64,000 bases of DNA from an uncultured Candidatus Saccharibacteria bacterium (GCA_964643955.1 CAZXUO010000001.1:78314-142313); one strand, 5' to 3'; shown: positions 9,938 through 50,046, counted from the stretch's first letter. Program-made: numbers and translations. Notes: generated from the sequence alone by a model not told the origin.

Positions 9938-11185
<1,248 letters not shown>

Positions 11186-11722
11186 CTACTGAATCGAGAC
11201 GAGCTCTACAAGAAAAACAAGTGATGAGTTGGGAAGAATACGTCCTACTTTTTCTGCACCATACGCAAGCTGCGCCGGCACAACAAGTACGCGAATACCT
11301 CCCTCTCTCATTCCTACAACGCCACGTTCAAAGCCAGCGATCATTTCTCCTTCACCAACCACAAAGGTAAGTGGCTCGCCGGTCTTGAATGTGTTATCAA
11401 ACTCCTTTCCGTCCTTGACCTCGCCCGCATAGTTTACGGTGATGGTATCGCCGGTACGGACCGTCTTCTCTGTCGTTGTCCCTACTACGACATCGTCAAC
11501 GATGAGCTTGGTGATGTTTCCAGCTGCATTACTTCCTGCAGAGAGTGCTTGTGCGAGCGCAATTTCCTGATTGGGGAGCGAAGAATCGACGATAATGACA
11601 TCATCACCTGATGGTCCCTTTTCAAACAATGGTGGCAAATAGCGAATACCCGCCAAAACGGCAATGAGGATTAAAAGGCTCGCTCCAATCCCGATAATTT
11701 CGTAGCGTGAAAGTGATCTCAT
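11186..11722 (-). CDS. FKBP-type peptidyl-prolyl cis-trans isomerase, membrane-anchored
   Basis: FKBP domain (GDTITVNYAGEVKDGKEFDNTF...GEGEMIAGFERGVVGMREGG...LVFLVEL) with an N-terminal TM helix. Confidence 0.8.
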   Translation of the reverse strand: MRSLSRYEIIGIGASLLILIAVLAGIRYLPPLFEKGPSGDDVIIVDSSLPNQEIALAQALSAGSNAAGNITKLIVDDVVVGTTTEKTVRTGDTITVNYAGEVKDGKEFDNTFKTGEPLTFVVGEGEMIAGFERGVVGMREGGIRVLVVPAQLAYGAEKVGRILPNSSLVFLVELVSIQ

Positions 11723-34848: not shown

Positions 34849-36096
34849 CTAAAATTCACCCAATGCATCATCGATCAGATCTTCAGCTTCGTCAACGAGA
34901 TCGAGCGCTTCTTCTTCGTCGCCATCATCGAGGGCATCGCGAGCATCATCGAGAAGGTCTTCGGCTTCTTCGAGGAGATCTTGTGCATCACCAGTATCCT
35001 CACCGTCACTTTCTGCTTCGTCGTATGCATCCCATGCATCATCGAGCTCATCTTGTGCATCATCAATCGCCTCCTCTGCCTCGTCGCTATCACTACCACT
35101 TCCGATTGCATCAAGTGCATCATCAATCGTGTCTTCTACCTCATCAGCAAGATCCAATGCTTCGTCAAAATTTTCGTCATCAAATGCCTCCCATGCATCA
35201 TCGAGGAGATTTTGTGCATCTTCAAGTAATTCCTGCGCCTCATCAACATCCTCTCCATCATCGTCTGCATCTTCAATCTTTGATTCGGCAAGATCGATAT
35301 CTTCTTCAAGATTCTCGAGTCGTTCCTCAGCTGCATCTTCATCAGATTCTCCTCCTGCGTCTTCATATGCATCTTCCGCATTATCACGAGCGTCATCAGC
35401 TGCTTCGATTGCATCAGCATAATCACCATCAAAATATGCACGCATCGCTTCAAACAGATCATTCTTCGCGTCTTCGAGATTATTTTTTGCGTTTTCAATG
35501 CCTTCAGCACCTCCGTTGTCATCAATTTGTTCCTCTGCTTCCTCGATTGCTTCAAGCGCTTCTTCAATCACAGTCCGTGCACCTTTTTCATTTACAGCAG
35601 GTGTTGAAGCTGGATTTGAGCTACCGCCCGCATTCTTAAGCTTCTCCTGAAGCGCCGCAACTTGCGCAAGGAGTTTTGCAGCAAGATCAGTACCCGATGT
35701 TGTGCCGCCTTCTGAAGGAGTTGTAGGAGCTGGCGTTGCAGTACCGCTCGTGAGTGCCGTGTACTTAGCGCGAGATTGTGCGCCAAAGTAACCAATAGGA
35801 GGAGTGAGGCCATTTGCCTTTTGCCATGCAATGACTGCTTTTTGTGTCAGATCTTTAAACTGCGTCGTCTCACGTCCAGGAGACCCAACGCCACTTGTAG
35901 CAATGACAAACCCTGCGCCGTTGAGGTATTGCTGGAGACAACGCACATCCTCCCCCTCCATACCAAGTTCAAGATTGCGTGTAAAGGTACATGTCGCTGC
36001 ATGTGCAGACGATGGAAGACTAATAAAAAGAAATACTGCAGCAATTACAAAAAAACCACTGATAAAAACCCCTCGAGTTATTGATGCGAATGTCAT
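34849..36096 (-). CDS. secreted protein: peptidoglycan-binding domain followed by long acidic Asp/Glu/Ala repeats
   Basis: Signal peptide, PG_binding_1-like segment (CLQQYLNGAGF...QKAVIAWQKANGLTPPIGYFG), then ~250 aa of degenerate D/E/A-rich helical repeats (DDAxDAxDEA...). The 338-aa His/Arg-rich ORF on the opposite strand is a mirror artefact. Confidence 0.6.
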   Translation of the reverse strand: MTFASITRGVFISGFFVIAAVFLFISLPSSAHAATCTFTRNLELGMEGEDVRCLQQYLNGAGFVIATSGVGSPGRETTQFKDLTQKAVIAWQKANGLTPPIGYFGAQSRAKYTALTSGTATPAPTTPSEGGTTSGTDLAAKLLAQVAALQEKLKNAGGSSNPASTPAVNEKGARTVIEEALEAIEEAEEQIDDNGGAEGIENAKNNLEDAKNDLFEAMRAYFDGDYADAIEAADDARDNAEDAYEDAGGESDEDAAEERLENLEEDIDLAESKIEDADDDGEDVDEAQELLEDAQNLLDDAWEAFDDENFDEALDLADEVEDTIDDALDAIGSGSDSDEAEEAIDDAQDELDDAWDAYDEAESDGEDTGDAQDLLEEAEDLLDDARDALDDGDEEEALDLVDEAEDLIDDALGEF

Positions 36097-36700: not shown

Positions 36701-36877
36701 CTATTTTTTCTTCGTATCTCCACCTTGTTTCGGCTCATCTACATCTTTAAATGCGCTTCTCATGTGTTTTATAGCGTCAACAAGGCTTTTTGCCAACTCA
36801 GGAATTTTTTTAGCACCAAAGAGAAGGATGAGCAGTATCGCGAGTATTATCAGTTCTTTCGTTCCAAGTCCAAACAT
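36701..36877 (-). CDS. tatA: Sec-independent protein translocase TatA/E (58 aa)
   Basis: Manual translation: MFGLGTKELIILAILLILLFGAKKIPELAKSLVDAIKHMRSAFKDVDEPKQGGDTKKK, with the canonical TatA N-terminus and amphipathic helix. Not in the ORF track (<60 aa). Immediately downstream of tatC. Confidence 0.75.
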   Translation of the reverse strand: MFGLGTKELIILAILLILLFGAKKIPELAKSLVDAIKHMRSAFKDVDEPKQGGDTKKK

Positions 36878-36900
36878 GGTCGTGTCGTATTACTTAATAA

Positions 36901-37629
36901 TTATGATGTCTGTTCGCCTCTTACGCTGAAATCATTATACATGATAGTCGCCTCGTACATAACAAGAAGAGGTACCACCATCATTAGGAGTGATACACCG
37001 TCAGTGGGAGGAAGAAGCGCCGTCGATAGAAACATAAAAAACACTGCATGACGCCTTTTCTCCTTTAAAAAACTCCCACTTAGTATGCCTACTTTTATCA
37101 AAAAGATGAGTACGATGGGAAATTCGAAAATGAGCCCCAGAAGCGCCGATGTAGAGATGATTTGAGATAAAAATACTCGAATATCCCAAAGATTTTCAAA
37201 ACCGAGACTGGTATTTATGTCTGCAAACGTTTGCATTGCATAGTACAAAATAGAAAAACTATACGTAAACCCAAACAAAAAAAGAAAAAGAATCAGTGGT
37301 AATAAGAAAAAGAACATTTTTTTCTCTTTTTTTCGTAGTCCGTTCCCAATAAATGCATACAGATGGTATAAAAAAACTGGCGCTGTGAGCAGAACTGCGG
37401 TAAATAAACCTGCATCCATCGCAAGATCAAGAAGCTGAAATGGTGAAGTTGCCGCCAACACAACATCTTCAAAATGAAATATACGAGTAAGGAATTTTAT
37501 GATAGGTATGAAGCATAGAAATCCAAACGCGAAAGTAATTACAAAAAATATCGTCAGGAAATAGATTCTCCCTGACAGATCTTCTAGATACGGCGAGTAT
37601 TCGTCAATTTTTTTCTGCAATTCATCCAT
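36901..37629 (-). CDS. tatC: Sec-independent protein translocase TatC
   Basis: 242 aa with 6 TM helices and the TatC family pattern (FLTIFFVITFAFGF ... LLPPTDGVS). Confidence 0.85.
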   Translation of the reverse strand: MDELQKKIDEYSPYLEDLSGRIYFLTIFFVITFAFGFLCFIPIIKFLTRIFHFEDVVLAATSPFQLLDLAMDAGLFTAVLLTAPVFLYHLYAFIGNGLRKKEKKMFFFLLPLILFLFLFGFTYSFSILYYAMQTFADINTSLGFENLWDIRVFLSQIISTSALLGLIFEFPIVLIFLIKVGILSGSFLKEKRRHAVFFMFLSTALLPPTDGVSLLMMVVPLLVMYEATIMYNDFSVRGEQTS

Positions 37630-37675
37630 ACTCGAGCTACTGTAGATTACAATCGTTTGCTAGACCGGAAGAATA

Positions 37676-37861
37676 CTATTCTGACATGATGAAAATATTA
37701 CCTCCCCCACCTTCATCCTCTGGTATCTCATGGACAATTTGCTGGCTACCGTCCGCATCGGTGAGGATATCTCCGAGAGAACCCACATAAACCACTGAGG
37801 GAAGTTCTACTAGAAAATCCTGACCTTCACCTTCTGAGAAATATATATCCGTAAATGCCAT
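37676..37861 (-). CDS. small acidic hypothetical protein (61 aa)
   Basis: ORF tightly packed between neighbouring genes; no motif. Confidence 0.3.
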   Translation of the reverse strand: MAFTDIYFSEGEGQDFLVELPSVVYVGSLGDILTDADGSQQIVHEIPEDEGGGGNIFIMSE

Positions 37862-37864
37862 ACA

Positions 37865-38519
37865 CTATACGCGCAATTTCCTCGTTACCTTTTTCTTCAA
37901 AAGACTGATGACCTCCTCCGTCGTAGTGGCCTCCGGTACTACATCTGGCGCTATTGGCGTAGTTGTGGCTTCAAAAATCTCGGAGATGCTTGGCAATATT
38001 GTGGGAGACGTCGAAGTACCCAAAACCTCAGGGGTCGTAGAAGATGTATCTGGTAGGGAAATCTCAGGAAGTTGAGGTGAAACATCTTCAGATTCCTCCC
38101 CACTCTCTTCAAAAAGCTCAACTTCATCTTCTACTACTGTCTCTGTTGTGGGGTTCTCTGCCTGTTCTTCCATTACTGTCTGCTCCACGGCCATAGCGTC
38201 CTGAAGAGATGCAGGCTCAAGCGAACCACTATTCATCTGTGAAAGTAATTCATTGGTCATACGAACGTATGAAGCTGCAGAATGCGTCGATTTTGGATCC
38301 AAGGCGAGAATTGCCAAACCAAGTTCTTTTGGTTCATTAAAATAGTAGACCATATTGCCATACTTCACATACTGCGCTTGATACGCCCCTCGTGAGAGCG
38401 ATGGATCAGCCGAATCGTAACATTCAATGAGAGCCATATCCTCATAACTACCGGTCGGCGATGCGACCTTAAGATTCGTATCCTCCATTAACGCGGCATG
38501 TTGTTCTATGTAAATCATA
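37865..38519 (-). CDS. hypothetical protein with acidic Thr/Pro/Glu-rich C-terminal half
   Basis: Likely start MIYIEQHAAL at ~38519, adjacent to the 804-aa gene; the track ORF extends further upstream and overlaps that gene. Confidence 0.4.
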
Positions 38520-40934
38520 TTAGTTTTGCGTGAGAAGTGCGCGTACTTTAATATCATCCGCAAGAGATGGACAGACATAGCGAATATAGGTGGTCTCACT
38601 TCCTCCTTTATCAGTTGTATCATAGTCACCCCACGCCCCACCATCATTTGTAGATTTTTGAAATGTCCCCTCTTCAGGATCTACAGTAGTGTCATCAACG
38701 AGTAATGAGCCCGTCACCGCATTATAGAGGCGAATACGCAGCTCCGGCACTGTACTCCCAAAAGCTGTAGAGAAACGCCATGCAAATGTCTTAGTGCTTA
38801 TCGAAGAATGTGCAACCGACGGTTGGTAATGACTATCGGTAGTGTTGTCCTCATATACAACACACACGTTATATACACGATTCGGCAGACAAAAGGTGCC
38901 TATGGTACGGAATTCAAATGCAAATTGGATTGCGGATGCACCCGCAACACTTGAAAGATCACCCGATTTGTCTATGAGAGTCCACGCCCCACTATCATCA
39001 CTAATTCCCAACGTACGATAGTATACACGCACTGGCTCAGTTGGCAGCGTCAGAGAGCCTTCGCCCAGATACTGCGCAGTATTGAAGTACGCACGTACAA
39101 ACTTTTCTGCATTCGGCGTTGCAAGAGACGGCGTGTAAAGACGTTGTTTCACTGATTCATCGGCATAATCCCAATCTGCGCCAAGTGGAACGGCATACAG
39201 TGCATTTGTTATCGCAGTAGTACCCGCGCGTACGATATAGGTCAGTCCCTCTTCCGACCACACATTGATGATACCTGCTTGGACGCTTGGATGTGGAACA
39301 GAGTTTGAATCAGCGGCAGACTGATCAATCTGCTTAGAATCAATGAGAAAAATGTGATCAAATGGATCGGAGTTCGTATTGTATTTGGTGATGTAGCTAC
39401 GCGCACCAGCTGAACCTGTCGAAGTAATTATCAGACGATCAATCTGATCGGAAATCTCAACACCTGTAAAAACGCCGCCGGCGCCATATGTACCAGCTCC
39501 TCCTGGGGGGACTTCTAGCATAGTGTCAGAAATATAGGTGGTCGAACCATTGACAATATTTCCCATTGCGACACGATAAATACGTGAAGCTGTTGCAAAA
39601 AAAAGCGATTTCTGCCCATTTGCCGGTCCATGCGCCAAGGTACCGATACGGCCGTTATTTGTCGCCGTGGTGTTACCAGTAACGGTCTGAATGCCGGTCG
39701 CAAAGACAAATGCTGAGGTGGTTTTCCCAGATGAAATAGAAGCGAGCGCACTACGAAAATTGTACTTATAAATAGATGGGGTCGTTGCAGCGACGCGCTC
39801 GATAACGTAACAGTACTGCTGCGTCCAGCTATCGCGATCATCAAGGGCAAGTCCAGAGTTTGCATCATTTGTGACGGTCGATGCGTCAGCAAGCCAGTAC
39901 ACAGCTTTCACTTTATCAACCGTTGTGGCCGCTGCGATAGTGACGCCTGCTGGGGTAAAGTCGTCGTATGAAAGACCCGATGCCATAAAAAGCCCACCGT
40001 TTGTTGCCGTTGCGTTCGTCGTTGTTGTCAGGCCGCGTAGGTCTTCGATCACATATGCAGTTCCCGCAGCGACAGTAATATTCGATGCGACACCGCCTGT
40101 TCCAGCAGCAGTGACATTGTTTTGAATAGTTATTGAGGTATTTGATCCGACAGCATTGATGTAGTACCACGTAGAGATCTGGGTGGGATCCGTAGAACCA
40201 AAACCAATGCGCGAACCTATAATAATGCGATCATCGGTCCATGTGGTACCTGATCCTGTCACAGTCGCCGTCGCGACTTCCACGGTTCCGGTCGTGTATT
40301 TGGCATAGACAGCGCGCATACCTGTAATCGTGTGATTGGTGGCCGCTGGATAGGTCATTATGATGAATCCTTTCCACGTAAAGATCGAGGTGCCTCTACG
40401 GAATTCGTAGCACGTGATGCGTCGTGTCGTGTTTGTCGCCGCACCGTCAGCAAGAAATACCCAGTCTATGTTGTAGTTCATATCAATCACGAAATTGGTG
40501 CTGCTCGGAATGGTTCCCGCTGTCGCGCTAAGTGTGATTGATGTATTTGATGCAATGGCCGTAATTGTATACCAATCCGTAACCGCAGTTGGATCTGTGG
40601 TTCCAAACCCAATACGTGCGTTGATTGGTACGCCAGCCGTATGCCACGCGGTCGTTGTGCCCGTAACTGCAGTCCCAGACACTGCGACCGTGCCTGTGGA
40701 ATAATATCCTGACTTATCTGCCCATCGCACTACGTGTGGATAGAGACCAGGCACCGAAACCGATGTCTCAAATGGACGGGCATTCCCCATCTTTATGGGG
40801 CCCGCAAACTTATCAGTGGCATCTTCACCCGTGTACTGTCGTATGAGGTCGCCTAAAACGGTTTTATTGGAATCATAAGCGTCATACATGACCGTACCTC
40901 CTGTGAATGTGTGTTCTGTAACGCGCTTTGCCAT
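38520..40934 (-). CDS. large Thr/Gly/Ser/Ala-rich beta-rich protein (fiber- or adhesin-like), no N-terminal signal peptide
   Basis: 804 aa with internal duplicated segments (TGTVAVSGTAVTGTTTAW...IGFGTTDPTAVTDWYTI and TGTVEVATATVTGSGTTW...IGFGSTDPTQISTWYYI). The composition is typical of beta-helical fibre proteins. Confidence 0.5.
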   Translation of the reverse strand: MAKRVTEHTFTGGTVMYDAYDSNKTVLGDLIRQYTGEDATDKFAGPIKMGNARPFETSVSVPGLYPHVVRWADKSGYYSTGTVAVSGTAVTGTTTAWHTAGVPINARIGFGTTDPTAVTDWYTITAIASNTSITLSATAGTIPSSTNFVIDMNYNIDWVFLADGAATNTTRRITCYEFRRGTSIFTWKGFIIMTYPAATNHTITGMRAVYAKYTTGTVEVATATVTGSGTTWTDDRIIIGSRIGFGSTDPTQISTWYYINAVGSNTSITIQNNVTAAGTGGVASNITVAAGTAYVIEDLRGLTTTTNATATNGGLFMASGLSYDDFTPAGVTIAAATTVDKVKAVYWLADASTVTNDANSGLALDDRDSWTQQYCYVIERVAATTPSIYKYNFRSALASISSGKTTSAFVFATGIQTVTGNTTATNNGRIGTLAHGPANGQKSLFFATASRIYRVAMGNIVNGSTTYISDTMLEVPPGGAGTYGAGGVFTGVEISDQIDRLIITSTGSAGARSYITKYNTNSDPFDHIFLIDSKQIDQSAADSNSVPHPSVQAGIINVWSEEGLTYIVRAGTTAITNALYAVPLGADWDYADESVKQRLYTPSLATPNAEKFVRAYFNTAQYLGEGSLTLPTEPVRVYYRTLGISDDSGAWTLIDKSGDLSSVAGASAIQFAFEFRTIGTFCLPNRVYNVCVVYEDNTTDSHYQPSVAHSSISTKTFAWRFSTAFGSTVPELRIRLYNAVTGSLLVDDTTVDPEEGTFQKSTNDGGAWGDYDTTDKGGSETTYIRYVCPSLADDIKVRALLTQN

Positions 40935-40962
40935 AGATGAGAATTATATCAAACGTTCGATA

Positions 40963-41586
40963 CTACACTTCCAAGTAATCAATATTTATCTGCACCGTGG
41001 TCGTTCCTGATATCACACAATATAACACCTGATCTACTCCTCCTTCGATATAGTTCGGGTGGTTATTTGATCCATAGAGGCCACCCGCCTTAGGAGCGAC
41101 ATATTTTTCATGATCTGTTCCACCTACGGTAAATCGAAACGATACGGATGTCGCATCCGCTGTGAGTGAGAATCGAGATGCATACACTCTAATCTTATTT
41201 CCAGATGCAGGTGTATGGACATTCCCTGAAGCTGAAAGATTGATAGAAAGTTTTGAGACCCCCTGCCCCGCAATGAGTGACTCGAGTGTCTCTTCTGTTG
41301 CCGGATTTATCCTATCGTTACTTGCATCTTTCACACCAATCACGCTCGAAGAAGGCGTACTTCCCATAATGAGCGCCTCTGCCTTATTGGGAAGTAGTTG
41401 CGAGGCCACGAGACCAACGCCAGCCACTCCTGCTATTTTAAGAAATGCTCTTTTTTTGTTATCTGGCGCTGTATCTGATGTTACGACCTCTGCATCAACG
41501 GCTCGAGGACGAGAAATGGTTGGAGCAAGCACATTCTTCTTTGAGACGAGTCTGAATGAGTGCTTCAGTGGGAGCTTTGTAAACAT
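40963..41586 (-). CDS. secreted hypothetical protein with a Tat-like (KR-variant) signal peptide
   Basis: N-terminus NKKRAFLKIAGVAGVGLVASQLLPNKAEA resembles a twin-arginine motif (S/T-R-R-x-F-L-K) with KR in place of RR; tatA/tatC lie 3.3 kb upstream. Confidence 0.4.
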   Translation of the reverse strand: MFTKLPLKHSFRLVSKKNVLAPTISRPRAVDAEVVTSDTAPDNKKRAFLKIAGVAGVGLVASQLLPNKAEALIMGSTPSSSVIGVKDASNDRINPATEETLESLIAGQGVSKLSINLSASGNVHTPASGNKIRVYASRFSLTADATSVSFRFTVGGTDHEKYVAPKAGGLYGSNNHPNYIEGGVDQVLYCVISGTTTVQINIDYLEV

Positions 41587-41661: not shown

Positions 41662-44600
41662 GTGCATAAGTTCGAGCTTTCATACTTAAAAATGCACAAC
41701 CGTGCACAGAATATACGCAGTGTCCTTCTCCTTTCAAAGTTCGTCTTTGGGATTGCTTTTTTCTTTACACTCTCATATAGCAATGTGGTGCATGCTGCAT
41801 ACGAAAAGTTTTCTGCAGGAAGTACGGCGACTATCGGAGAGTTTGTGTACGAAGATGATTTCACTCCGTCAAGCGAGGACTGTATACTCTCAATATATAG
41901 TCCGAGCGGCAGCACTGAGGTGAACGCAGCCACAATGGATGAGGAAGCAAATGGCTGGCACTTCTATGAGTACGCGGTACCTTCAAGTGGGCCTGAGGGC
42001 ATCTGGCCTGCATTCATGAGTTGCGGTACGGCTCTCGACGGAGATCTCGTAAAAATGGACAAGACCTTTTCAGTTGGTGCGGTAAATGTCTCAAGTACAA
42101 CCATCGCAACAGCTGTATGGAATAGCTCGACTCGAACACTAAGTTCATTCGGCTCATTGGTATCTACTATTTGGTCAAATGCCACACGTACCCTCACTGG
42201 TGCAACGCTGGATTCTGGCTCACTTGCAACACAATCCGATGTGACTTCAGCATCTTCATCACTCAATGCTGCAATTAGCGCAAGTACCGCTACCATCAAT
42301 ACAAATACGGATAGCGAAATACTGAACGCAAGTACATCGCTCGCGTCAAATATTAATGCGAATACTAATAGCGCGACCGCGGGTATCACTTCAGCGGTGA
42401 ATGCGAATACCAATTCTGCAATTGCAACTGCATCATCCTCTCTTTTTGCAACACTTCCAGGAGCAATATGGTCGTATAGTGCTCGGACGTTGACCTCATT
42501 TGGAACGCTGGTCGCAAATGTGTGGTCAAATGCCACACGTACGCTCACGGGCGCAACGCTGGATTCTGGCTCACTTGCAACGCAGGCAAATATAACGACA
42601 GCGAGTTCTTCTCTCGGAGCAGCAATCACGGGAGGAGTGGCGACGGTGAATAGCAATACAAACAACGCAGTACTTGCAGCGAGTACGTCACTGGCTTCAA
42701 ACATAAATCAAAATACTGACAGCGAAGCTGCAAATATCACCTCAACAGTAAATGCGAATACGAATGCAGTAGTCCAGAGTGCTTCATCGTCTCTCTTTGC
42801 CAGTCTTCCGGGTGCGATATGGTCGTACAGCGCACGTACACTTACGTCGTTTGGAACACTCGTAACAAATGTCTGGTCAAATGCCACACGTACGCTCACG
42901 GGCGCAACGCTGGATTCTGGCTCACTTGCAACACAATCCGATGTGACTTCAGCATCTTCATCACTCAATGCTGCAATTAGCGCAAGTACCGCTACCATCA
43001 ATACAAATACGGATAGCGAAATACTGAACGCAAGTACATCGCTCGCGTCAAATATTAATGCGAATACTAATAGCGCGACCGCGGGTATCACTTCAGCGGT
43101 GAATGCGAATACCGACAGTGAGATAGCAGCAGCAAGTACATCACTTGCCGCAAGCATAAATGCAAACACGAATAATGCAATTGCAAGTGCCTCAACATCG
43201 CTTGCCGCAGCTATTTCTGCAGGTACGGCCGATATTAATGCTGAGATACAATCAGCAAGTTCATCGCTTGCGACGGGAATCCTCACAAATCGTGCCCTCA
43301 TTAATAGTCTCAACGATATTTCTGCAGCAGATGTATGGTCTGCGGGCACACGCACACTCACTGCATATGGGACATCTACTGGCGCGAGTGCGTCTAGCAC
43401 CGCAACTGCGGTTTGGAATATGGCGTCTGCTCAGCTCACGAGCGTAGGAAGCATAGGCAAGCTGCTTGCCGACAATATTGACGCTGAGATTTCTTCACGC
43501 GGTACAAGTAGTTTGACTGCAGCAGAAGTCTGGGCTGCAGGCACACGCACACTAAGTGATTACAACACATCAGCACTCTCCACTGCGGTAACAACCGCCG
43601 TCTGGGCAAATGCCGCGAGAACACTCACTAACTATGGTAATGATATTACTGCAGCGCAAGTATGGGACGCACTTACCTCTGGGCTCACGTCGGTGGATTC
43701 AATTGGAAAACTTCTCGTTGATAATGTGAACACGACCGTTTCCTCTCGTGCATCACTCGCAAACCAAACTGCTGGTTGGACTATTACAATGTCTGATTAT
43801 AGTTCGGTTCAAGCGGGCGAAACATACCGCGCGCGCATTGAAGTTAGAAATAGTAACAGTGTTCCCACAGCTCCCTTTGACACTCCAAACGTCACGCTCT
43901 ACGACGCAGAACGCAATATAACAGTATCAGCAGTAGATATGACGAGTGTCGCTACAGGCGTGTACGAATATACATACGCTGTATCGGATAGTGCCTCACA
44001 AGGTGTATGGGAAACTATCGTAAGTACTGAGGTAGAAAGTGGTAAAACACTTACAAACAATGACTACTGGATCGTTGCGGGCTCTCCAGCGCAAGTCATC
44101 ATTAATAGTGTGACTGGAGAAATACCAACGGCAACTGCAAACGTGACGATTACAAATGAAGGCCTTGCCGGCTACGAGTACCAATACGAATGGTGTGTCG
44201 TATCTGCTTCAAACAATCAGTGCGGGGGCGGAGATGATGTCTATCATGCCACCGGCGCAAAATTCATTAATCCTAGCGAGGATTGGAACACCAATCTTAC
44301 AGCAACCGTTTCTTCTGCTGGTTCATACTACTTTAAACTCATCGTCTACTTCGGCACTGATCGCTCAGGTTCTTCAAGAACCTTTATATTTGAGGGAGAC
44401 GAGGAAGATCCACCTCCACAAGGAGGCGGAGGTGGTGGTAAAAGCGGTGGAGGATCAGCTTCCGTAAGCGCGCCAAGGTCATGTGTGGGTGCTAACTTCA
44501 ATGGCGACCGGATTACTAATTCAATTGATTTCTCTATTCTCCTCTCCTACTGGAAACTCCCACCTCCTGCAACAAACAAATGTGTAGACATCAGCGGTGA

Positions 44601-44670
44601 CAATATTATCAACTCTGTTGACTTCTCAATTCTCCTTTCCCAGTGGGGTACCAAAGGATCTGCCCTATAA
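41662..44670 (+). CDS. giant secreted repeat protein with C-terminal tandem dockerin-like repeats
   Basis: Signal peptide, then three 117-aa tandem repeats plus ~10 short VW..TRTLT.YG motifs. The C-terminus has two calcium-loop-like segments, NFNGDRITNSIDFSILLSYW and DISGDNIINSVDFSILLSQW, that match the type-I dockerin pattern D-x-N-x-D-G-x-I-N-x-x-D-x-x-x-L. Confidence 0.6.
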   Translation: MHKFELSYLKMHNRAQNIRSVLLLSKFVFGIAFFFTLSYSNVVHAAYEKFSAGSTATIGEFVYEDDFTPSSEDCILSIYSPSGSTEVNAATMDEEANGWHFYEYAVPSSGPEGIWPAFMSCGTALDGDLVKMDKTFSVGAVNVSSTTIATAVWNSSTRTLSSFGSLVSTIWSNATRTLTGATLDSGSLATQSDVTSASSSLNAAISASTATINTNTDSEILNASTSLASNINANTNSATAGITSAVNANTNSAIATASSSLFATLPGAIWSYSARTLTSFGTLVANVWSNATRTLTGATLDSGSLATQANITTASSSLGAAITGGVATVNSNTNNAVLAASTSLASNINQNTDSEAANITSTVNANTNAVVQSASSSLFASLPGAIWSYSARTLTSFGTLVTNVWSNATRTLTGATLDSGSLATQSDVTSASSSLNAAISASTATINTNTDSEILNASTSLASNINANTNSATAGITSAVNANTDSEIAAASTSLAASINANTNNAIASASTSLAAAISAGTADINAEIQSASSSLATGILTNRALINSLNDISAADVWSAGTRTLTAYGTSTGASASSTATAVWNMASAQLTSVGSIGKLLADNIDAEISSRGTSSLTAAEVWAAGTRTLSDYNTSALSTAVTTAVWANAARTLTNYGNDITAAQVWDALTSGLTSVDSIGKLLVDNVNTTVSSRASLANQTAGWTITMSDYSSVQAGETYRARIEVRNSNSVPTAPFDTPNVTLYDAERNITVSAVDMTSVATGVYEYTYAVSDSASQGVWETIVSTEVESGKTLTNNDYWIVAGSPAQVIINSVTGEIPTATANVTITNEGLAGYEYQYEWCVVSASNNQCGGGDDVYHATGAKFINPSEDWNTNLTATVSSAGSYYFKLIVYFGTDRSGSSRTFIFEGDEEDPPPQGGGGGGKSGGGSASVSAPRSCVGANFNGDRITNSIDFSILLSYWKLPPPATNKCVDISGDNIINSVDFSILLSQWGTKGSAL
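42112..43165. repeat. three tandem 351-nt coding repeats, with a ~236-nt stretch identical between copies 1 and 3
   Basis: Seen in sequence: copy starts at ~42112, 42463 and 42814. 42175-42410 equals 42877-43112 exactly. Confidence 0.7.
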
Positions 44671-44677
44671 ACTCATT

Positions 44678-45559
44678 ATGCATAACGCACTGACATCATT
44701 TCTCATTATAGGCATAGCGCTCAGCGGCTTTGTAACGCCTCTCTTGACACATGCTATGAGTATATACGTAGAAATGCCCGAGAAGGCATTACGTGTGGGA
44801 AACACGACCTTTCTTGATGTCATGGTAGATACTGAAGATACTGAAATAAATGCAATTGAAGGAACGGTCACATTCGAAGATCCTCGATTTATTACGACGA
44901 TTTCCACAGGTGGCTCTATTTTTACGCTCTGGCCCCGAAGACCCTCAGTAGACGCAGATCGTATATCCTTTACCGGAGGAACAATTTCAGGAGTTTTTGG
45001 CAATGCACTCAAACTTTTTACCATAGTCGTGACTCCCACAACGCAAGACCTAGTCTCCATAAATTTTGGTGGCGTAACCGCGTATCTCAATGACGGAAAA
45101 GGAACTCCCGTCTCACTTTCCGGCTCATCACTTGAATTACCCGTATTCCCTATTGGTAACTCGGAAAATGAACTTGCTACACAGATTTCAACAGACATCA
45201 CTCCTCCACAAGAATTTTTAGTAGAACTTGGTAGGGATCCTTCGGTATATGATGGAAAATACTTTATAAGTTTTTTTGCAAGTGATAGTGAGTCGGGAAT
45301 TAATAGATACGAGGTTATCGAGAACGACTACCCCATGGTTCGTTCAGGAAATGCGTACGTGTTACAAGACCAATCACTACACGGAACGGTTGAAGTGCGT
45401 GCTGTCGATAATGCCGGAAATACACTCTCAAAAACATTAGCATTACAGGATACTGAAGAAATTGCGCCATCCTCATACGCAATAGTTCTTATCATAATCC
45501 TTGGCGCGCTCATTGTTGGGTGTATATTTTACATACGGTACATTCGTAGAAAAAAATAA
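44678..45559 (+). CDS. type-I membrane protein with N-terminal cohesin-like module and Ig-like domain
   Basis: Signal peptide (cleavage near THA-MS), ~140-aa module with a cohesin-like beta-sandwich pattern (TVTFEDPRFITTIS...GGTISGVFGNALKLFTIVVTPT...VSINFGGVTAYLNDGKGT), C-terminal TM helix and basic tail (RYIRRKK). The ATG at 44678 is the likely start. Confidence 0.5.
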   Translation: MHNALTSFLIIGIALSGFVTPLLTHAMSIYVEMPEKALRVGNTTFLDVMVDTEDTEINAIEGTVTFEDPRFITTISTGGSIFTLWPRRPSVDADRISFTGGTISGVFGNALKLFTIVVTPTTQDLVSINFGGVTAYLNDGKGTPVSLSGSSLELPVFPIGNSENELATQISTDITPPQEFLVELGRDPSVYDGKYFISFFASDSESGINRYEVIENDYPMVRSGNAYVLQDQSLHGTVEVRAVDNAGNTLSKTLALQDTEEIAPSSYAIVLIIILGALIVGCIFYIRYIRRKK

Positions 45560-47304
45560 TGAAACATTTCTTTATATTTGTTGTCGTTTGTGTACTTAGT
45601 GGTATCGCCTTGCCACTTTCAGCAGAAGCTGCAGAGATGTATCTCGTGCTCGATAAAACCCAAGTCACTGAGCAGGGCACATTTTCTGGAACGGTCTATG
45701 TATCAACAGGAGGTGTTGCGATAAACAATGCTGAAAGTACGCTGCATTTCCCTACCGACCTCATCAGTGTCGACTCAGTCAGTATCGTCGGTTCAATATT
45801 TAATATCTGGGTCGAGCAACCAACGTACTCAAATACCGCTGGCACCGTGTACTTCAACGGAGGACTGCCTACACCCGGTTATTCTGGAGAAGCAGGTAAT
45901 TCTTTACGTATTAATTTCAGAGCAAAGAAATCAGGAACTGCAAATATTACCTTTGGCACCTCAGCCATTAGAGCAAACGATGGAAAGGGTACCGACGTAC
46001 TCACAAATAGACGTGGAGGTAGTATCGCAGTGACAAGCGGATTCATTACTCTTCCCCAAACAACTCCCGTCGTACCTACCACACAACCTCAACCTGTTTC
46101 GGAAAACACAACGGATCTACGTGGTCCTGCAATTGTTTCAGAAGACATGCCCAACCAAGACGCGTGGTACAACAAGACAACGGGAAATTTCTCATGGGCA
46201 TTGCCTGAAGGTATTACAACCGTACAGTTGATTTTGAGTAGACTCTCAAGTACAGTCCCAACTGTAATATACGAACCTCCAATTAAGAATAAGACTCTCT
46301 CGGACCTCTCAGAAGGCATTCTCTACCTGAACGGTCGATTCAAAGATACTACCGGCTGGAGCAGGGTTAGCAGTAGAAAAATTCAGATCGACCTCACAGA
46401 GCCTGAGAGTCTTTTTGCAAAATCCACCATAACAAAGGACGACACTGTTTTAATTGAGGTATCAGCACTAGATACTCTTTCAGGAATCAAGAGTTACACA
46501 GTCTATGACGGTGAAGACAAGCTCGCCGAAGAAGCAGCGCACGACGGTGCTTCTGTCAAAATACAGCTCCCTCCACTTCAGCCTGGCACTCACTCCCTCA
46601 CTGTTCGCGTCTACGATAATGCAGAAAACTATGCAGAAACAAAAATTTCTGTAGATGCCCCAACAATGAAGCCACCGCGCATTACGCAGTATCCTCAGTT
46701 CCTCACCGCTGGCTCAAAAATAGAGATTACTGGTACAACACCATATAGTGACGGAGTTACACTCCTGTGGATAAAGGAAGAAAAGAAGGAAACCTTGAGC
46801 TATCCAGTCAGTCTCGATGCTCAAGGAACTTTTACATATACCACAGAGAAGATAAAGAACCCTGGGATAGTGAGTCTATGGGCAGAAACGATTAGAGAAG
46901 GACAGACAACAGGCATTTCATCTGAGAAAGTTTACATAGATGTTGAGGGCAAAGATGCATTGAGTCTGGGGACTGGAGCAATTCAAATAGTATCCCTCGT
47001 CATCACCCTACTCGTCTTACTATTCGGAGTTCTCGCACTCATATACCTTGGTATGAGAAAACTTAATAGATTCAAACGCACGCTTCGAAGGGATCTCATT
47101 CACACCGAGCGAGAAGTACATAAAATATTTAAAATCCTTAAGAGTGATACCAAGCGCCATCTAACGATGCTTGAGCGGGCACGGAAGAAAAGGAAGCTTA
47201 CACGAGAGGAGAATAAGATATTCACTGAGCTCTCAGAAAATCTTGACGAGACTGAACAATACCTCGCTGAAAAGATACAAAATATTGAAGAACAAAATCT
47301 ATAA
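45559..47304 (+). CDS. type-I membrane protein with N-terminal cohesin-like module, Ig-like domains and cytoplasmic coiled-coil tail
   Basis: Signal peptide (LSAEA-AE), cohesin-like module (TLHFPTDLISVDSVSIVGSIFNIW...GNSLRINFRAKKSGTANITFGTSAIRANDGKGT), an Ig-like region paralogous to the previous gene, a C-terminal TM and a ~80-aa charged helical tail. Its start overlaps the previous stop (TAATG). Confidence 0.5.
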   Translation: MKHFFIFVVVCVLSGIALPLSAEAAEMYLVLDKTQVTEQGTFSGTVYVSTGGVAINNAESTLHFPTDLISVDSVSIVGSIFNIWVEQPTYSNTAGTVYFNGGLPTPGYSGEAGNSLRINFRAKKSGTANITFGTSAIRANDGKGTDVLTNRRGGSIAVTSGFITLPQTTPVVPTTQPQPVSENTTDLRGPAIVSEDMPNQDAWYNKTTGNFSWALPEGITTVQLILSRLSSTVPTVIYEPPIKNKTLSDLSEGILYLNGRFKDTTGWSRVSSRKIQIDLTEPESLFAKSTITKDDTVLIEVSALDTLSGIKSYTVYDGEDKLAEEAAHDGASVKIQLPPLQPGTHSLTVRVYDNAENYAETKISVDAPTMKPPRITQYPQFLTAGSKIEITGTTPYSDGVTLLWIKEEKKETLSYPVSLDAQGTFTYTTEKIKNPGIVSLWAETIREGQTTGISSEKVYIDVEGKDALSLGTGAIQIVSLVITLLVLLFGVLALIYLGMRKLNRFKRTLRRDLIHTEREVHKIFKILKSDTKRHLTMLERARKKRKLTREENKIFTELSENLDETEQYLAEKIQNIEEQNL

Positions 47305-47928
47305 CGCTTCCTGATCAGATGGTGTCTCTACTTCTTCGGACTCAATCATATTGGTATCTACTGTTTCAGCCGATATCACCTCAGTGGGCGCTCTAAGCGA
47401 TGCGAATGTTGTCGTCGTTCCGATTTCCGTCAATGTCGTCTCCTCTACAACCAGTTCCTCTCCCGTAAGAGCAAGGGTAATTTGTAATGGTTCTGCATAG
47501 GGACCAGCTTCATCGCCTAAAATATGTAGTACACGCGTCTTTTCACTGAGATTGTCTGTAGTAGAAGCTACCCCATACCAGCTCATTGAATTGTCACGTA
47601 CACTCTCGCACTGTTTCGTAAGCGAAAAAGTATCGTCTTTAGAAAAGGCGAGCGCAAAAGACATATAGTAGGAATTTACACACAAGCCATCACTTTCTTT
47701 CTGTGGTCCTGAGTAATAAACCGCATTAAAAGCATCGCCTGTCTCCTGAACGGGCTTTCGATCAGAAAGCACAATAGGGACCAATCCTGATTGGGAAACT
47801 CCCCCTATACGCTCTTCCAAGAATGCAAATACCGCGGTATTTGTACTTAAATAACGATAAGCTAGAAATCCCGGTATAAGACCGAGTGTACTAACTAACA
47901 TAACGAGTGCGTATTCCTTGTAAGTCAT
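47299..47928 (-). CDS. hypothetical membrane-anchored protein
   Basis: 209 aa with an N-terminal TM helix; no recognised motif. Confidence 0.4.
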   Translation of the reverse strand: MTYKEYALVMLVSTLGLIPGFLAYRYLSTNTAVFAFLEERIGGVSQSGLVPIVLSDRKPVQETGDAFNAVYYSGPQKESDGLCVNSYYMSFALAFSKDDTFSLTKQCESVRDNSMSWYGVASTTDNLSEKTRVLHILGDEAGPYAEPLQITLALTGEELVVEETTLTEIGTTTTFASLRAPTEVISAETVDTNMIESEEVETPSDQEAL

Positions 47929-48179: not shown

Positions 48180-49472
48180 CTACATCACCTCACCGAGGAC
48201 CGGCATGCCGAGTCGTTGACGAAGATTTTCTCCACTGAGGAGACTCGATCTACGTGCAGGGACATCTACGCTTTTAACTGCCTGAGCGAGCGTCTTCAGT
48301 GTTGTACCAAGAAATACCGTATGTCGTCCAAACTTATCATCAAGAGAATCGACGACTGCATACACTCTCCTCCAGCGCGTGAGCTCAACGCTTGCACCAA
48401 AGAGATCCATCTGTTCGTTTTCGTACGGCGTCAGATTCATGAGTACCACACCCGTCGCGCGATACTCCGCCCCAGGTTTATAGACTTCACTAAAATCTTC
48501 TTTGATTATTTTAATAATCTCACTCGGGACTGAAAGTGGATTTGAGAGCGTAAATTCAAACCCTTTATACTCAAACTCCTGGGTCTTCAAAAAGAAGAAG
48601 ACCTTTTCTGCGGAGAGGCCGTGGCGACGTGCTTTAGCACAGGCATCCTCAACATTCTTTGAGAGCTGGGAGAATATGAAATCTTTGTCGGTCGAAGGTG
48701 GCGTAAATGTCCGTGTCTTACTGATGCTTTGGTAATCATGCTTTTCTACGGTATTGATCGCATGGATTGATACTCCCTGAAGCTCATACCATATTTCTCG
48801 ATACGGCTTACTCATATGCTTCTCAATCCACTCTTCGGACTTCTCGACATATTCAAGTGCCGTGCGCACTCCAAGCTTTTCAAGATACTCAGTCGTCTGT
48901 CGTCCGATACCCCACACATATCCAACAGGAAGTGTTTTTAAAAACGTTCGTATCTTATTACTTGGAATGCACGTGAGTCCCGCAGGCTTCTTCCACTTTG
49001 AGCCGACTTTTGCAAGTACTTTTGTTGAAGAGAGTCCGACAGAAAAGGTAATGCCGAGCTCATTCTCAAGATCGTGTTTGATCGCCGCAGCCATTTCTTC
49101 GTACGACATATGGAGCGGCCCTCGAAGTCCCGTGAGATCTGCAAAACATTCATCAATACTATATTCCTCAACATCAGGCGTATATCGCCTTACGATCTCA
49201 TACATGCGACGCGAAAACATACTATATGTCTCATAGTCGGACGGAAGAATAATGACATCAGGACATATCTTGCGAACTTCAGTGAGCTTCATTGCGCGTG
49301 TGATACCGCGCGCTCGCGCTTCATAGCTCATCGACGAAGCAATGCCGCGTTCTTTTCCCGTAACGATTGGCTTGCCACGCAATGATGGGTTCATCGCCAC
49401 TTCGCACGATGTGAAAAATGAATCGCCGTCGATGTGGAGGATAGCTCGTTTGAAAGGTTGTGGTGCTGGCAT
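48180..49472 (-). CDS. dinB: Y-family DNA polymerase (DNA polymerase IV-like)
   Basis: ILHIDGDSFFTSCEV, SIDECFADLTG and the SVGLSSTKVLAKVGS palm motifs. Start MPAPQPFKRAILHID at 49472, 1 nt after the lexA stop. Confidence 0.85.
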   Translation of the reverse strand: MPAPQPFKRAILHIDGDSFFTSCEVAMNPSLRGKPIVTGKERGIASSMSYEARARGITRAMKLTEVRKICPDVIILPSDYETYSMFSRRMYEIVRRYTPDVEEYSIDECFADLTGLRGPLHMSYEEMAAAIKHDLENELGITFSVGLSSTKVLAKVGSKWKKPAGLTCIPSNKIRTFLKTLPVGYVWGIGRQTTEYLEKLGVRTALEYVEKSEEWIEKHMSKPYREIWYELQGVSIHAINTVEKHDYQSISKTRTFTPPSTDKDFIFSQLSKNVEDACAKARRHGLSAEKVFFFLKTQEFEYKGFEFTLSNPLSVPSEIIKIIKEDFSEVYKPGAEYRATGVVLMNLTPYENEQMDLFGASVELTRWRRVYAVVDSLDDKFGRHTVFLGTTLKTLAQAVKSVDVPARRSSLLSGENLRQRLGMPVLGEVM

Positions 49473-49473
49473 A

Positions 49474-50037
49474 TTAGTATCGTCTGATGACTGCTTGTAC
49501 GACCGCTTCGATCTGCATCTCATTTTCTGGATAGATCGGCTTGAATCGTTTGTTTGCCGCCTCAAGGTATGTCTGCCCATTCCGCTGTCGGAGATATTTC
49601 ATCGTGTAACTCCCATCAACACACGCGATGACGATATTCCCCGGCTTCGGCACTTTGCCACGCTCGACGAGCACCATGTCGCCTTCCATAATTCCCGCGT
49701 CGATCATCGAGTCACCTTTCACCTTAAGCATAAACGTCGCTTCTTTATTCTTTATGAGAAACTCATCGAGACTCATCGTATCGATGAGCTCTTCTTCAGC
49801 CGCCGTTGGAAAACCTGCCTCTACATACCCGAGGAGAAATATTTCGTCAGTGAGCTGATTGGGAATAAGGCGACCCTGCTTATCTTTTGCGAGTACACCT
49901 TCCGCTATCAATTTCTTTACCGCATAGTGGACCGCGCTCTTTGTCTTGTAATGAAAGAGCTCGAGCATCTCAGAGTACGTCGGCATGCGACGACGCGCTC
50001 GGTAGAACATGAGTATTCTTTCTCGGTTCGAATTCAT
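49474..50037 (-). CDS. lexA: LexA repressor (wHTH plus S24 peptidase)
   Basis: The N-terminus aligns with the LexA DNA-binding domain. S24 catalytic residues are present: GDSM and the lysine in ...VDGSYTMK. Start ATG at 50037 (MNSNRERIL). Confidence 0.85.
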   Translation of the reverse strand: MNSNRERILMFYRARRRMPTYSEMLELFHYKTKSAVHYAVKKLIAEGVLAKDKQGRLIPNQLTDEIFLLGYVEAGFPTAAEEELIDTMSLDEFLIKNKEATFMLKVKGDSMIDAGIMEGDMVLVERGKVPKPGNIVIACVDGSYTMKYLRQRNGQTYLEAANKRFKPIYPENEMQIEAVVQAVIRRY

Positions 50038-50046
50038 ACCCACAGT

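Follow-up and report, generated by a model that had tools for sequence, protein, structure and literature searches.

A conserved cohesin–dockerin gene trio of Patescibacteria with a probable role in cell-surface display

Three neighboring genes on one strand of the window (the whole 64-kb stretch of DNA that was analyzed) encode a secreted protein with a C-terminal dockerin, here called A, followed by two membrane-anchored proteins with N-terminal cohesins, B and C (Table 1). The preliminary description of this DNA had reported three same-strand ORFs, and their coordinates are correct, as are the co-orientation and TAATG overlap of the last two genes, where the ATG of C and the stop codon of B overlap. 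The word "giant," which had been applied to A, is an overstatement for a protein of 1002 aa. The 64-kb window contains one dockerin ORF, that of A, and two cohesin ORFs, those of B and C, with no others of either kind being found. The B ORF itself spans 44597–45559, but the gene callers and all of its homologs start at the ATG at 44678.

Table 1. Coordinates of the trio, its modules, and the divergent neighbor operon
Feature	Position (nt)	Strand	Remarks
Gene A, secreted fiber protein	41662..44670	+	ORF, 1002 aa, GTG start
Variable fiber/repeat region of A, aa 150–692	42109..43737	+	TRF, motif count, composition
Dockerin module of A, aa 937–1002	44470..44667	+	Pfam Dockerin_1, phmmer, 19-homolog alignment
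Gene B, short membrane-anchored cohesin protein	44678..45559	+	Gene callers, 293 aa; 88 homologs
Cohesin module of B, aa 27–158	44756..45151	+	
Gene C, long membrane-anchored cohesin protein	45559..47304	+	ORF, 581 aa; 71 homologs
Cohesin module of C, aa 25–160	45631..46038	+	
Transmembrane anchor (aa 477–495) and coiled-coil-like cytoplasmic tail (aa 496–581) of C	46987..47301	+	
P207, predicted Tat-exported protein	40963..41586	-	207 aa; first gene of divergent neighbor operon
P804, highly conserved	38520..40934	-	804 aa; linked to trio; no signal peptide
P217, conserved small protein	37865–38518	-	Same operon; real start probably MIYIEQ
P61, conserved small protein	37676–37861	-	Same operon
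TatC	36901–37629	-	Pfam TatC, E 2.3e-37; near end of neighbor operon
TatA	36701–36877	-	Pfam TatA_B_E, E 4.5e-12; last genes of operon with TatC

The A protein, which would be 992 aa long if translation began at the ATG at 41692 instead, is built from a signal peptide, an MG2-like Ig domain, a series of Ala/Ser/Thr/Asn-rich repeats, another MG2-like Ig domain (Pfam MG2, aa 716–790), a Cys-containing beta domain, a Gly-rich linker, and the dockerin. Hydropathy analysis gives a single hydrophobic segment, at the N-terminus (aa 20–38). The repeat region contains a tandem repeat at 42172–43113 with a period of 351 nt and 2.7 copies (TRF), together with 11 copies of a W-x4-5-RTLT motif, and it is dominated by alanine (19%), serine (18%), threonine (16%), and asparagine (10%). 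In other loci this region is missing or substituted: the A proteins of loci L004, L015, and L020 are only 361–365 aa long, and that of L019 carries FN3 arrays. Scans of A and of its homologs revealed no enzyme domain, the domains present being MG2, FN3, and Ig-like ones only.

The dockerin had been called by eye from two 20-residue segments; both occur at the C-terminus of A and jointly give a match to Pfam Dockerin_1 (PF00404) at aa 947–991 (E 5.9e-5) that only just passes the gathering score, with 23.6 bits against a cut-off of 22.9. Ten of the eleven proteins at the A position of other loci also pass (23.1–39.5 bits), including eight at 26–39.5 bits as well as those of L003 and L004, while the L005 protein falls below at 20.7 bits. 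Phmmer comparison with solved dockerins returned 2y3n_B (E 1.6e-4) and 2vn5_B (E 0.008), both repeats being covered. The module consists of two 22-residue calcium-loop-plus-helix repeats with a Cys ahead of each, the first reading N-F-N-G-D-R-I-T-N-S-I-D and the second D-I-S-G-D-N-I-I-N-S-V-D, each followed by FSILLS(Y/Q)W. Across a 19-sequence alignment of homologs, the consensus of both repeats is D/N-x-N-x-D-x-x-x-N-x-x-D, and loop positions 1, 3, 5, 9, and 12 are conserved in both, so the ligand positions of the two predicted calcium-binding loops are indeed present and retained. Given the profile scores and the conservation in 19 homologs, a chance occurrence of the calcium-loop motif was rejected.

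By hydropathy, the B and C proteins each begin with a hydrophobic signal segment and have a single transmembrane segment toward the C-terminus, as had been described, with a basic stretch directly after the latter in both. In B, the order is signal peptide, cohesin, one Ig-like domain, transmembrane segment, and short basic tail, and the AlphaFold model has a pLDDT of 94.2 and a pTM of 0.81. In C, the signal peptide and cohesin are followed by a Pro/Thr linker, three Ig-like domains, a transmembrane segment, and a charged, conserved cytoplasmic helix of about 86 aa; a Pfam Big_7 match occurs in the same protein. The C anchor, IVSLVITLLVLLFGVLALI, has a Kyte-Doolittle score of 3.14 and is followed by the tail MRKLNRFKRTLRR, which has invariant positions across 22 homologs. 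The AlphaFold model of C (pLDDT 85.9) gives the layout of domains and helix, including a long helix at aa 466–580. Each anchor protein carries one cohesin and, by Pfam and hydropathy, is tethered by its transmembrane segment, not by SLH domains or sortase signals. The proposed paralogy of Ig-like domains in the two proteins is borne out for one such domain (hhalign, E 4.9e-47), and the N-terminal modules are paralogous too (32% identity, E 4e-10).

The assignment of the N-terminal modules as cohesins stands on transitive homology and fold, although the direct Pfam test that was to decide it fails for the two proteins of the window: PF00963 gave no match to B or C at E ≤ 1, and an NCBIfam scan for cohesin gave nothing at that threshold. 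Likewise, no cohesin appeared in single-sequence phmmer searches of B and C against PDB sequences, or among the hits at E ≤ 1 of a C-family profile against PDB sequences, which were Ig-like and apolipoprotein-like noise. Among homologs, the N-terminal module exceeds the PF00963 cut-off in 18 of 48 full-length C proteins and 11 of 73 B proteins. Ten C-family proteins scanned singly (eight from the 48-sequence alignment plus P0036 and P0065) reached 26–34 bits at about aa 25–165, against a cut-off of 24.1 bits. A B-family profile matched solved R. flavefaciens cohesins (5aoz_A, E 1.2e-4; 5m2o_A, E 1.7e-4), and one B homolog is named "cohesin domain-containing protein" by NCBI. The modules have the nine-strand jelly-roll beta-sandwich fold of cohesins. 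Residues common to the B and C families include an Asn at the start of strand 3, a Trp and a Pro in strand 5, F-x-G-G in strand 6, and D-G-x-G-T after strand 8. The residues conserved in both families map to the strand 8-3-6-5 side, the dockerin-binding face in the 1OHZ complex.

Related loci were retrieved with a 22-sequence alignment of close homologs. In 20 independent loci of Patescibacteria, B and C are preceded by an A homolog, and the order of dockerin protein, B, and C is the same in all of them, so that the trio does show the conserved synteny for which a check had been proposed. The cargo of A can be as short as 361 aa or as long as an FN3 array exceeding 2275 aa with no change in gene order, and each locus has one dockerin and two cohesins. 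Within the trio, conservation is highest in the dockerin (50–70% identity; 40% in L005) and in the cohesin of C (40–75%), as compared with 28–54% for the Ig stalks. Among the best 150 cluster representatives, some 10 are fusions of B and C, and their predicted topology puts both cohesins outside. The preliminary description had considered the arrangement unusual for CPR, but this type of cohesin has more than 2000 cluster representatives at 50% identity and is therefore common, not rare. A literature search on cohesins and dockerins in CPR, Patescibacteria, and DPANN found no account of such a module; the trio is a surface kit that is very widespread yet undescribed in the literature found.

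The trio had also been taken for a self-contained minimal unit. Instead, it sits inside a conserved cluster of nine genes, comprising P207, P804, P217, P61, TatC, TatA, A, B, and C, which adjoin one another, contiguously or in divergent orientation, in 11 loci and the window. The P207 protein matches the TIGR01409 Tat signal (18.0 bits, cut-off 16.7, E 0.0026); its motif is K-R-A-F-L-K, with (K/R)-R-x-F-L-K in homologs, and is followed by A-E-A, as compared with the (S/T)-R-R-x-F-L-K motif, hydrophobic region, and A-x-A cleavage site of a standard Tat signal. This gene adjoins the trio in 10 further loci, the eleventh (L018) being cut before the P207 position. The P804 protein shares 63–74% identity with its full-length homologs in other loci and is thus far more conserved than the trio, where most parts of B and C share 28–55%; its homologs fall into at least 1790 clusters, all unnamed. 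Pfam, NCBIfam, and PHROGs gave no match to P804, and Pfam gave none to P217 or P61. Against PDB, a P804 profile yielded no more than a marginal repeat match to a phage decoration protein (8eci, E 0.012), which was discarded. Homologs of P217 and P61 occur at the same positions in L004, L006, L008, L011, L012, L018, and L020–L022, and P61 and the dockerin gene directly flank TatC and TatA in L004, L018, L021, and L022. No hydrophobic segment was found in P804, P217, or P61, and no cohesin or dockerin in these three or in P207. PHROGs scans of all seven proteins submitted to them gave nothing meaningful, and a prophage or tail-fiber origin was rejected on that basis.

Taken together, the trio is probably a cell-surface display system built on a cohesin–dockerin plug and socket. 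In such a system, A would be exported by Sec as a non-enzymatic fiber, with Ig-like domains at its ends and a variable repeat shaft rich in Ala, Ser, Thr, and Asn, and its constant, type-I-like C-terminal dockerin would bind in a calcium-dependent manner to the N-terminal cohesin of either B or C, or to both. We infer this docking of A on B or C, as we do any preference for one cohesin over the other. B and C are bitopic membrane proteins that place their cohesins at two different distances from the cell, B by way of one Ig domain and C by way of its Pro/Thr linker and three Ig domains. The conserved cytoplasmic helix of C could connect the extracellular complex with some component of the cell interior. 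Judged from its architecture and length variability, the displayed fiber is most likely an adhesin for a host cell or a surface. The trio would do this as part of a conserved cluster whose other products include TatA, TatC, a predicted Tat substrate, and P804.

A simple display model does not account for the close linkage of the trio with TatA, TatC, P207, and P804.

Another way to read the locus is that the trio belongs, as one arm, to a larger envelope apparatus linked to Tat, with all nine genes building a single surface structure such as an envelope layer or organelle. Here, P804 would be exported folded, possibly piggy-backing on P207, and the cohesin–dockerin pair would tether or organize the structure instead of serving as an adhesin in its own right. 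The adjacency of the nine genes in 11 loci and the window, the high conservation and many homolog clusters of P804, and the pairing of a Tat-type signal on P207 with P804, P217, and P61 proteins that lack hydrophobic segments are all consistent with this. However, profile searches with P804, P207, P217, and P61 gave no domain or fold, and none of the four bears a cohesin or dockerin. Moreover, L005 has no Tat or P804 genes within 8 kb of the trio and L007 only a P207-like gene, the hitch-hiker export of P804 is pure speculation, and proximity could also reflect co-regulated envelope genes in a small genome. We regard this reading as unlikely.

A less likely arrangement still would have the three proteins as neighbors and not partners, with the cohesins of B and C taking dockerins encoded elsewhere and the dockerin of A binding another target, such as a cohesin-like or glycan structure of the host. 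The 64 kb examined are part of a genome in which other dockerin proteins may exist, L005 does have an extra, adaptor-like protein with both cohesin and dockerin, and non-cellulosomal dockerins without a known cohesin partner occur in Patescibacteria and Omnitrophota (PMC10633639, PMC10066038). Against this, the gene order is unvarying in 20 loci where the cargo is swapped and only the dockerin kept, each locus pairs one dockerin with two cohesins, and the dockerin and C cohesin are jointly the most conserved modules. The similarity of both module types to type-I cellulosomal ones, the closest found, might also suggest a miniature cellulosome-like enzyme scaffold for polysaccharide degradation. 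A cellulosome consists of dockerin-bearing carbohydrate-active enzymes on a multi-cohesin scaffoldin, but A and its homologs contain no glycoside hydrolase, carbohydrate-binding, or other catalytic domain, and B and C have one cohesin apiece on a transmembrane anchor in place of SLH domains or sortase signals. The cellulosome reading was rejected for want of enzyme domains and is extremely improbable.

Most Patescibacteria (CPR) presumably live in attachment to other microbes, and their attachment molecules are almost unknown, apart from the type IV pili of Saccharibacteria. The module is concrete and testable, combining a plug and socket of well-understood chemistry with species-varying cargo, two membrane receptors, and a fixed genomic linkage to the Tat system and P804, and it is short enough for recombinant expression, so experiments on binding, specificity, and localization are directly feasible. 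It also widens the scope of cohesin–dockerin biology, since the receptors here are anchored by a transmembrane segment, bear a single cohesin, and have a cytoplasmic tail, a combination of interest to those who engineer protein display. More tentatively, and in our view rather doubtfully, the nine genes might encode a lineage-wide surface organelle peculiar to Paceibacteria/Parcubacteria, in which a fiber of variable length is plugged through a cohesin–dockerin joint into a sometimes-fused pair of membrane receptors, the C helix relays attachment to the inner side of the membrane, and a dedicated TatAC exports P207 and the signal-less P804 as a folded complex of the same structure. If so, this large uncultivated group would gain its first defined machine of host attachment or of the envelope, and cohesin–dockerin systems their first example wired to a transmembrane receptor.

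Comparison with known systems begins with the type I cellulosomal pairs of C. thermocellum (CipA Coh2/Xyn10B Doc, PDB 1OHZ) and C. cellulolyticum (PDB 2VN5). Shared with these are a C-terminal dockerin of ~65 aa with two internally similar calcium-loop-plus-helix repeats, the matches of A to Pfam Dockerin_1 and to solved type-I dockerins, and a Pro/Thr-rich linker behind the cohesin, found here in C. Unlike cellulosomes, the trio resides in a Patescibacteria MAG, lacks enzyme cargo, CBM, and multi-cohesin scaffoldin, carries a variable fiber as its cargo, and presents single cohesins on transmembrane helices, not on SLH domains or by sortase. The A dockerin differs from cellulosomal ones in the conserved Cys before each repeat, and the window's B and C cohesins differ from theirs in falling below the detection limit of the Pfam model. 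In anchoring, B and C depart from the scaffoldins OlpA, OlpC, and SdbA of C. thermocellum (PDB 3UL4, 4DH2) by using a C-terminal transmembrane helix and, in C, by the conserved cytoplasmic tail, a feature not known from anchoring scaffoldins.

Non-cellulosomal modules provide a further comparison, and Peer et al. 2009 (FEMS Microbiol Lett 291:1) reportedly surveyed such cohesins and dockerins. Compared with the cohesins of Archaeoglobus fulgidus (PDB 2XDH) and of Clostridium perfringens glycoside hydrolases (PDB 2VO8, 2W1N), the genes described here form a fixed three-gene unit with two paralogous membrane receptors, set inside a conserved Tat-containing cluster and recurring in thousands of protein clusters; no description of such a fixed arrangement was found in the literature. 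A giant ORF bearing nine dockerins is also on record (PMC10066038). A further comparison is SEML1_0315 of Southlakia epibionticum (Saccharibacteria), which, unlike A, is flanked by an alpha/beta hydrolase gene and a tRNA, with no adjoining cohesin gene (PMC10633639). Like A, it is a dockerin-bearing, Ig-domain-rich envelope protein (~930 aa) of a Patescibacteria epibiont, and it is essential by Tn-seq, with a proposed role in host adhesion (Wang et al. 2023, PMC10633639).

Three open reading frames, all in the same orientation, occupy positions 41662-47304: A encodes a dockerin fibre protein, and B and C encode a short and a long membrane-anchored cohesin protein. By hydropathy, A carries a single, N-terminal hydrophobic segment; B and C each combine an N-terminal hydrophobic segment with one strong transmembrane segment near the C-terminus, behind which lies a basic stretch. 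This makes A a secreted protein and B and C bitopic membrane proteins that have most of the chain outside. From its N-terminus, A comprises a signal peptide, an MG2-like Ig domain, a shaft, a second MG2-like domain (aa 716-790), a Cys-containing beta domain, a Gly-rich linker and the dockerin. Ala, Ser, Thr and Asn make up 63% of the ~540-aa shaft, which includes 2.7 copies of a 117-aa repeat and 11 occurrences of a W-x4-5-RTLT motif. B consists of a cohesin, one Ig-like domain and the transmembrane segment, and C of a cohesin, a disordered Pro/Thr linker (aa 162-185), three Ig-like domains, the transmembrane segment and a C-terminal charged helix of ~86 aa with invariant positions. The 209-aa protein encoded at the end of C turned up in no contigs other than those of the same organism (L001, L002) and is therefore placed outside the conserved module.

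Genes of the trio and its surroundings (numbers after P are protein lengths in aa)
Feature	Position	Strand	Remarks
415-aa protein	34849-36096	-	secreted
TatA	36701-36877	-	Pfam E 4.5e-12
TatC	36901-37629	-	Pfam E 2e-37
P61	37676-37861	-	
P217	37865-38518	-	
P804	38520-40934	-	804 aa
P207	40963-41586	-	Tat-type signal, (K/R)R-x-F-L-K motif
A	41662-44670	+	1002 aa from GTG start; alternative ATG start at 41692
B	44597-45559	+	293 aa from ATG at 44678, the start in gene calls on identical public contigs and in all homologues
C	45559-47304	+	581 aa; ATG overlaps B stop codon as TAATG
209-aa protein	47299-47928	-	convergent with C, 6-nt overlap; one N-terminal transmembrane segment
DinB-type polymerase and LexA-like repressor	48180-50043	-	just downstream of the trio

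The preliminary description had recognized a dockerin at the tail of A by eye, and profile searches bear this out, with a Pfam Dockerin_1 match at aa 947-991 (E 5.9e-5) that narrowly passes the curated cut-off (23.6 versus 22.9 bits). When the 71-residue tail was searched alone, solved dockerins matched both repeats (2y3n_B, E 1.6e-4; 2vn5_B, E 0.008). An alignment of the last 78 residues of 19 proteins at the A position of other loci gave the consensus C-x-G-A-D-F-N-x-D-x-x-V-N-S-V-D-F-S-I-L-L-A-F-W-K ... C-V-D-I-N-x-D-x-x-V-N-S-V-D-F-S-I-L-L-S-Q-W-G, in which calcium-loop positions 1, 3, 5, 9 and 12 are kept in both repeats and each repeat has a Cys before it. Ten of 11 other A-position proteins scanned against Pfam also passed the Dockerin_1 cut-off (23.1-39.5 bits), the one at locus L005 falling below it at 20.7 bits.

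For the cohesins, the direct search that had been proposed, with PF00963, gave no Pfam match in B or C at E<=1. Nevertheless, the N-terminal modules of both proteins are cohesins, as three lines of evidence indicate. They are paralogous to one another (32% identity, E 4e-10), a relationship that at the profile level spans the N-terminal module and one Ig-like domain (hhalign probability 100, E 4.9e-47). Among the aligned homologues, PF00963 matches 18 of 48 from the C family and 11 of 73 from the B family, and all ten C-family proteins scanned singly scored above its cut-off, at aa ~25-165. Finally, the B-family profile matches solved Ruminococcus flavefaciens cohesins (5aoz_A and 5m2o_A, E ~1e-4). 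Every one of the homologues collected (71 for C, 88 for B) comes from a Patescibacteria-type metagenome bin. The residues that both cohesin families conserve map to strands 3, 5 and 6 and to the stretch immediately behind strand 8, the side that corresponds to the dockerin-binding face of 1OHZ.

The gene order of the trio is invariant. Among 20 independent loci, gathered from C homologues and, independently, from P804 homologues, all 20 show the order dockerin protein, B, C. Across loci, no modules of the trio are better conserved than the dockerin (50-70% identity; 40% in L005) and the C cohesin (40-75%); the Ig stalks reach 28-54%. The cargo at the A position varies, with proteins of 361-365 aa that have no shaft (L004, L015, L020), others of 843-889 aa, and one of more than 2275 aa (L019, 3-6830, +) that is truncated by the contig edge and contains at least 13 FN3 domains. 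Since this FN3 array shares with A only the C-terminal dockerin, the cargo has been swapped and the dockerin kept. At several loci (L004, 4367-7218; L011, 4987-6973; also L020 and L021) the A gene is represented by two successive ORFs, one with the repeats and one with the dockerin; such a split could be genuine or could reflect frameshifts or misassembly of the repetitive shaft.

The trio had been presented as unusual, yet its cohesin type is far commoner than was supposed: searched alone, the 137-aa cohesin module of C retrieved 4463 cluster representatives (50%-identity clusters) at E<=1e-3, 2267 of them at E<=1e-10, and in most of these it is the N-terminal module of a C-sized or B-sized protein. 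Some ten of the best 150 representatives are single ORFs of 686-886 aa (P0287, P0291, P0295, P0302, P0318, P0332, P0335, P0337, P0370, P0373) with a signal peptide, a B-type cohesin, a transmembrane segment, a hydrophobic segment, a C-type cohesin and a second transmembrane segment, the B transmembrane segment leading directly into the C signal-like segment. These could be natural B-C fusions or products of read-through at the overlapping TAATG junction. Such fusions, in which both cohesins are predicted to stay outside, support the idea that B and C act next to each other.

The best-supported reading of the trio is a surface display system, in which the A fibre would be held by its own dockerin on the membrane-anchored cohesin of B, of C, or of both. 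The fibre probably serves attachment, since the cargo is non-enzymatic and its length differs between species. The analysis shows the domain identities, the fold, the membrane topology, the gene linkage and the occurrence of fused ORFs; the binding, the choice of partner and the function of the system are inferences. A mini-cellulosome was rejected, as none of the A homologues showed a catalytic domain. It was also considered that the cohesins and the dockerin each serve other partners. Profiles built from the A and B/C families found no further dockerin or cohesin ORF in the window. Locus L005 encodes a 247-aa protein (10460-11203, +) with an N-terminal cohesin of the B/C family and, at the other end, a dockerin (E 1e-20 with the family HMM, 6e-4 with Pfam). 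This protein looks like an adaptor scaffoldin; more large unannotated genes (598 and 1522 aa) lie downstream of it.

Another alternative is that the trio forms part of a larger Tat-linked envelope apparatus. Its description as self-contained does not hold, for six conserved genes (P207 to TatA, 36701-41586) adjoin it on the minus strand, divergent from A. Eleven further loci keep this block as a unit beside the trio, in some cases inverted as in the window and in others collinear, with the dockerin gene directly after TatA. P804 has no signal peptide, and searches of Pfam, NCBIfam and PHROGs gave no match. Its identity is 63-74% to full-length homologues at other loci (versus only 31-55% for B) and 63-85% to homologues from numerous Patescibacteria bins, and its homologues form at least 1790 clusters, every one unnamed or "hypothetical". 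It contains internal repeats of the form GTVxVSGTxVTGxGTxW...IGFGxTDP...WYxIxAVxSxTSITI, and the only match obtained for it is a marginal one (E 0.012), to the phage decoration protein 8eci. Because TatAC shares the block with a putative KR-type Tat substrate and a large signal-less protein, the gene content suggests a dedicated, possibly hitch-hiker, Tat export route.

Elsewhere in the window, the 415-aa protein carries a peptidoglycan-binding domain at its N-terminus (PG_binding_1, E 1.4e-11), after which comes a long repeat region, extremely acidic and rich in Asp, Glu and Ala, with a DUF4398 match. The translesion polymerase (IMS family) and the adjacent S24 peptidase repressor, both assigned by Pfam, are a predicted SOS-type pair in a small genome.

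Cohesins and dockerins outside cellulosomes are known across all domains of life, as Peer et al. reportedly described in 2009 (cited in PMC10066038). The parts of the trio are ordinary, and what is new is their arrangement, anchoring and phylogenetic setting; the arrangement is rated new because full-text literature searches turned up no account of the trio or of the nine-gene cluster. In the saccharibacterium Southlakia, an envelope protein with a dockerin is essential (PMC10633639). No cohesin gene adjoins the gene for that protein, whereas A lies directly beside B and C.
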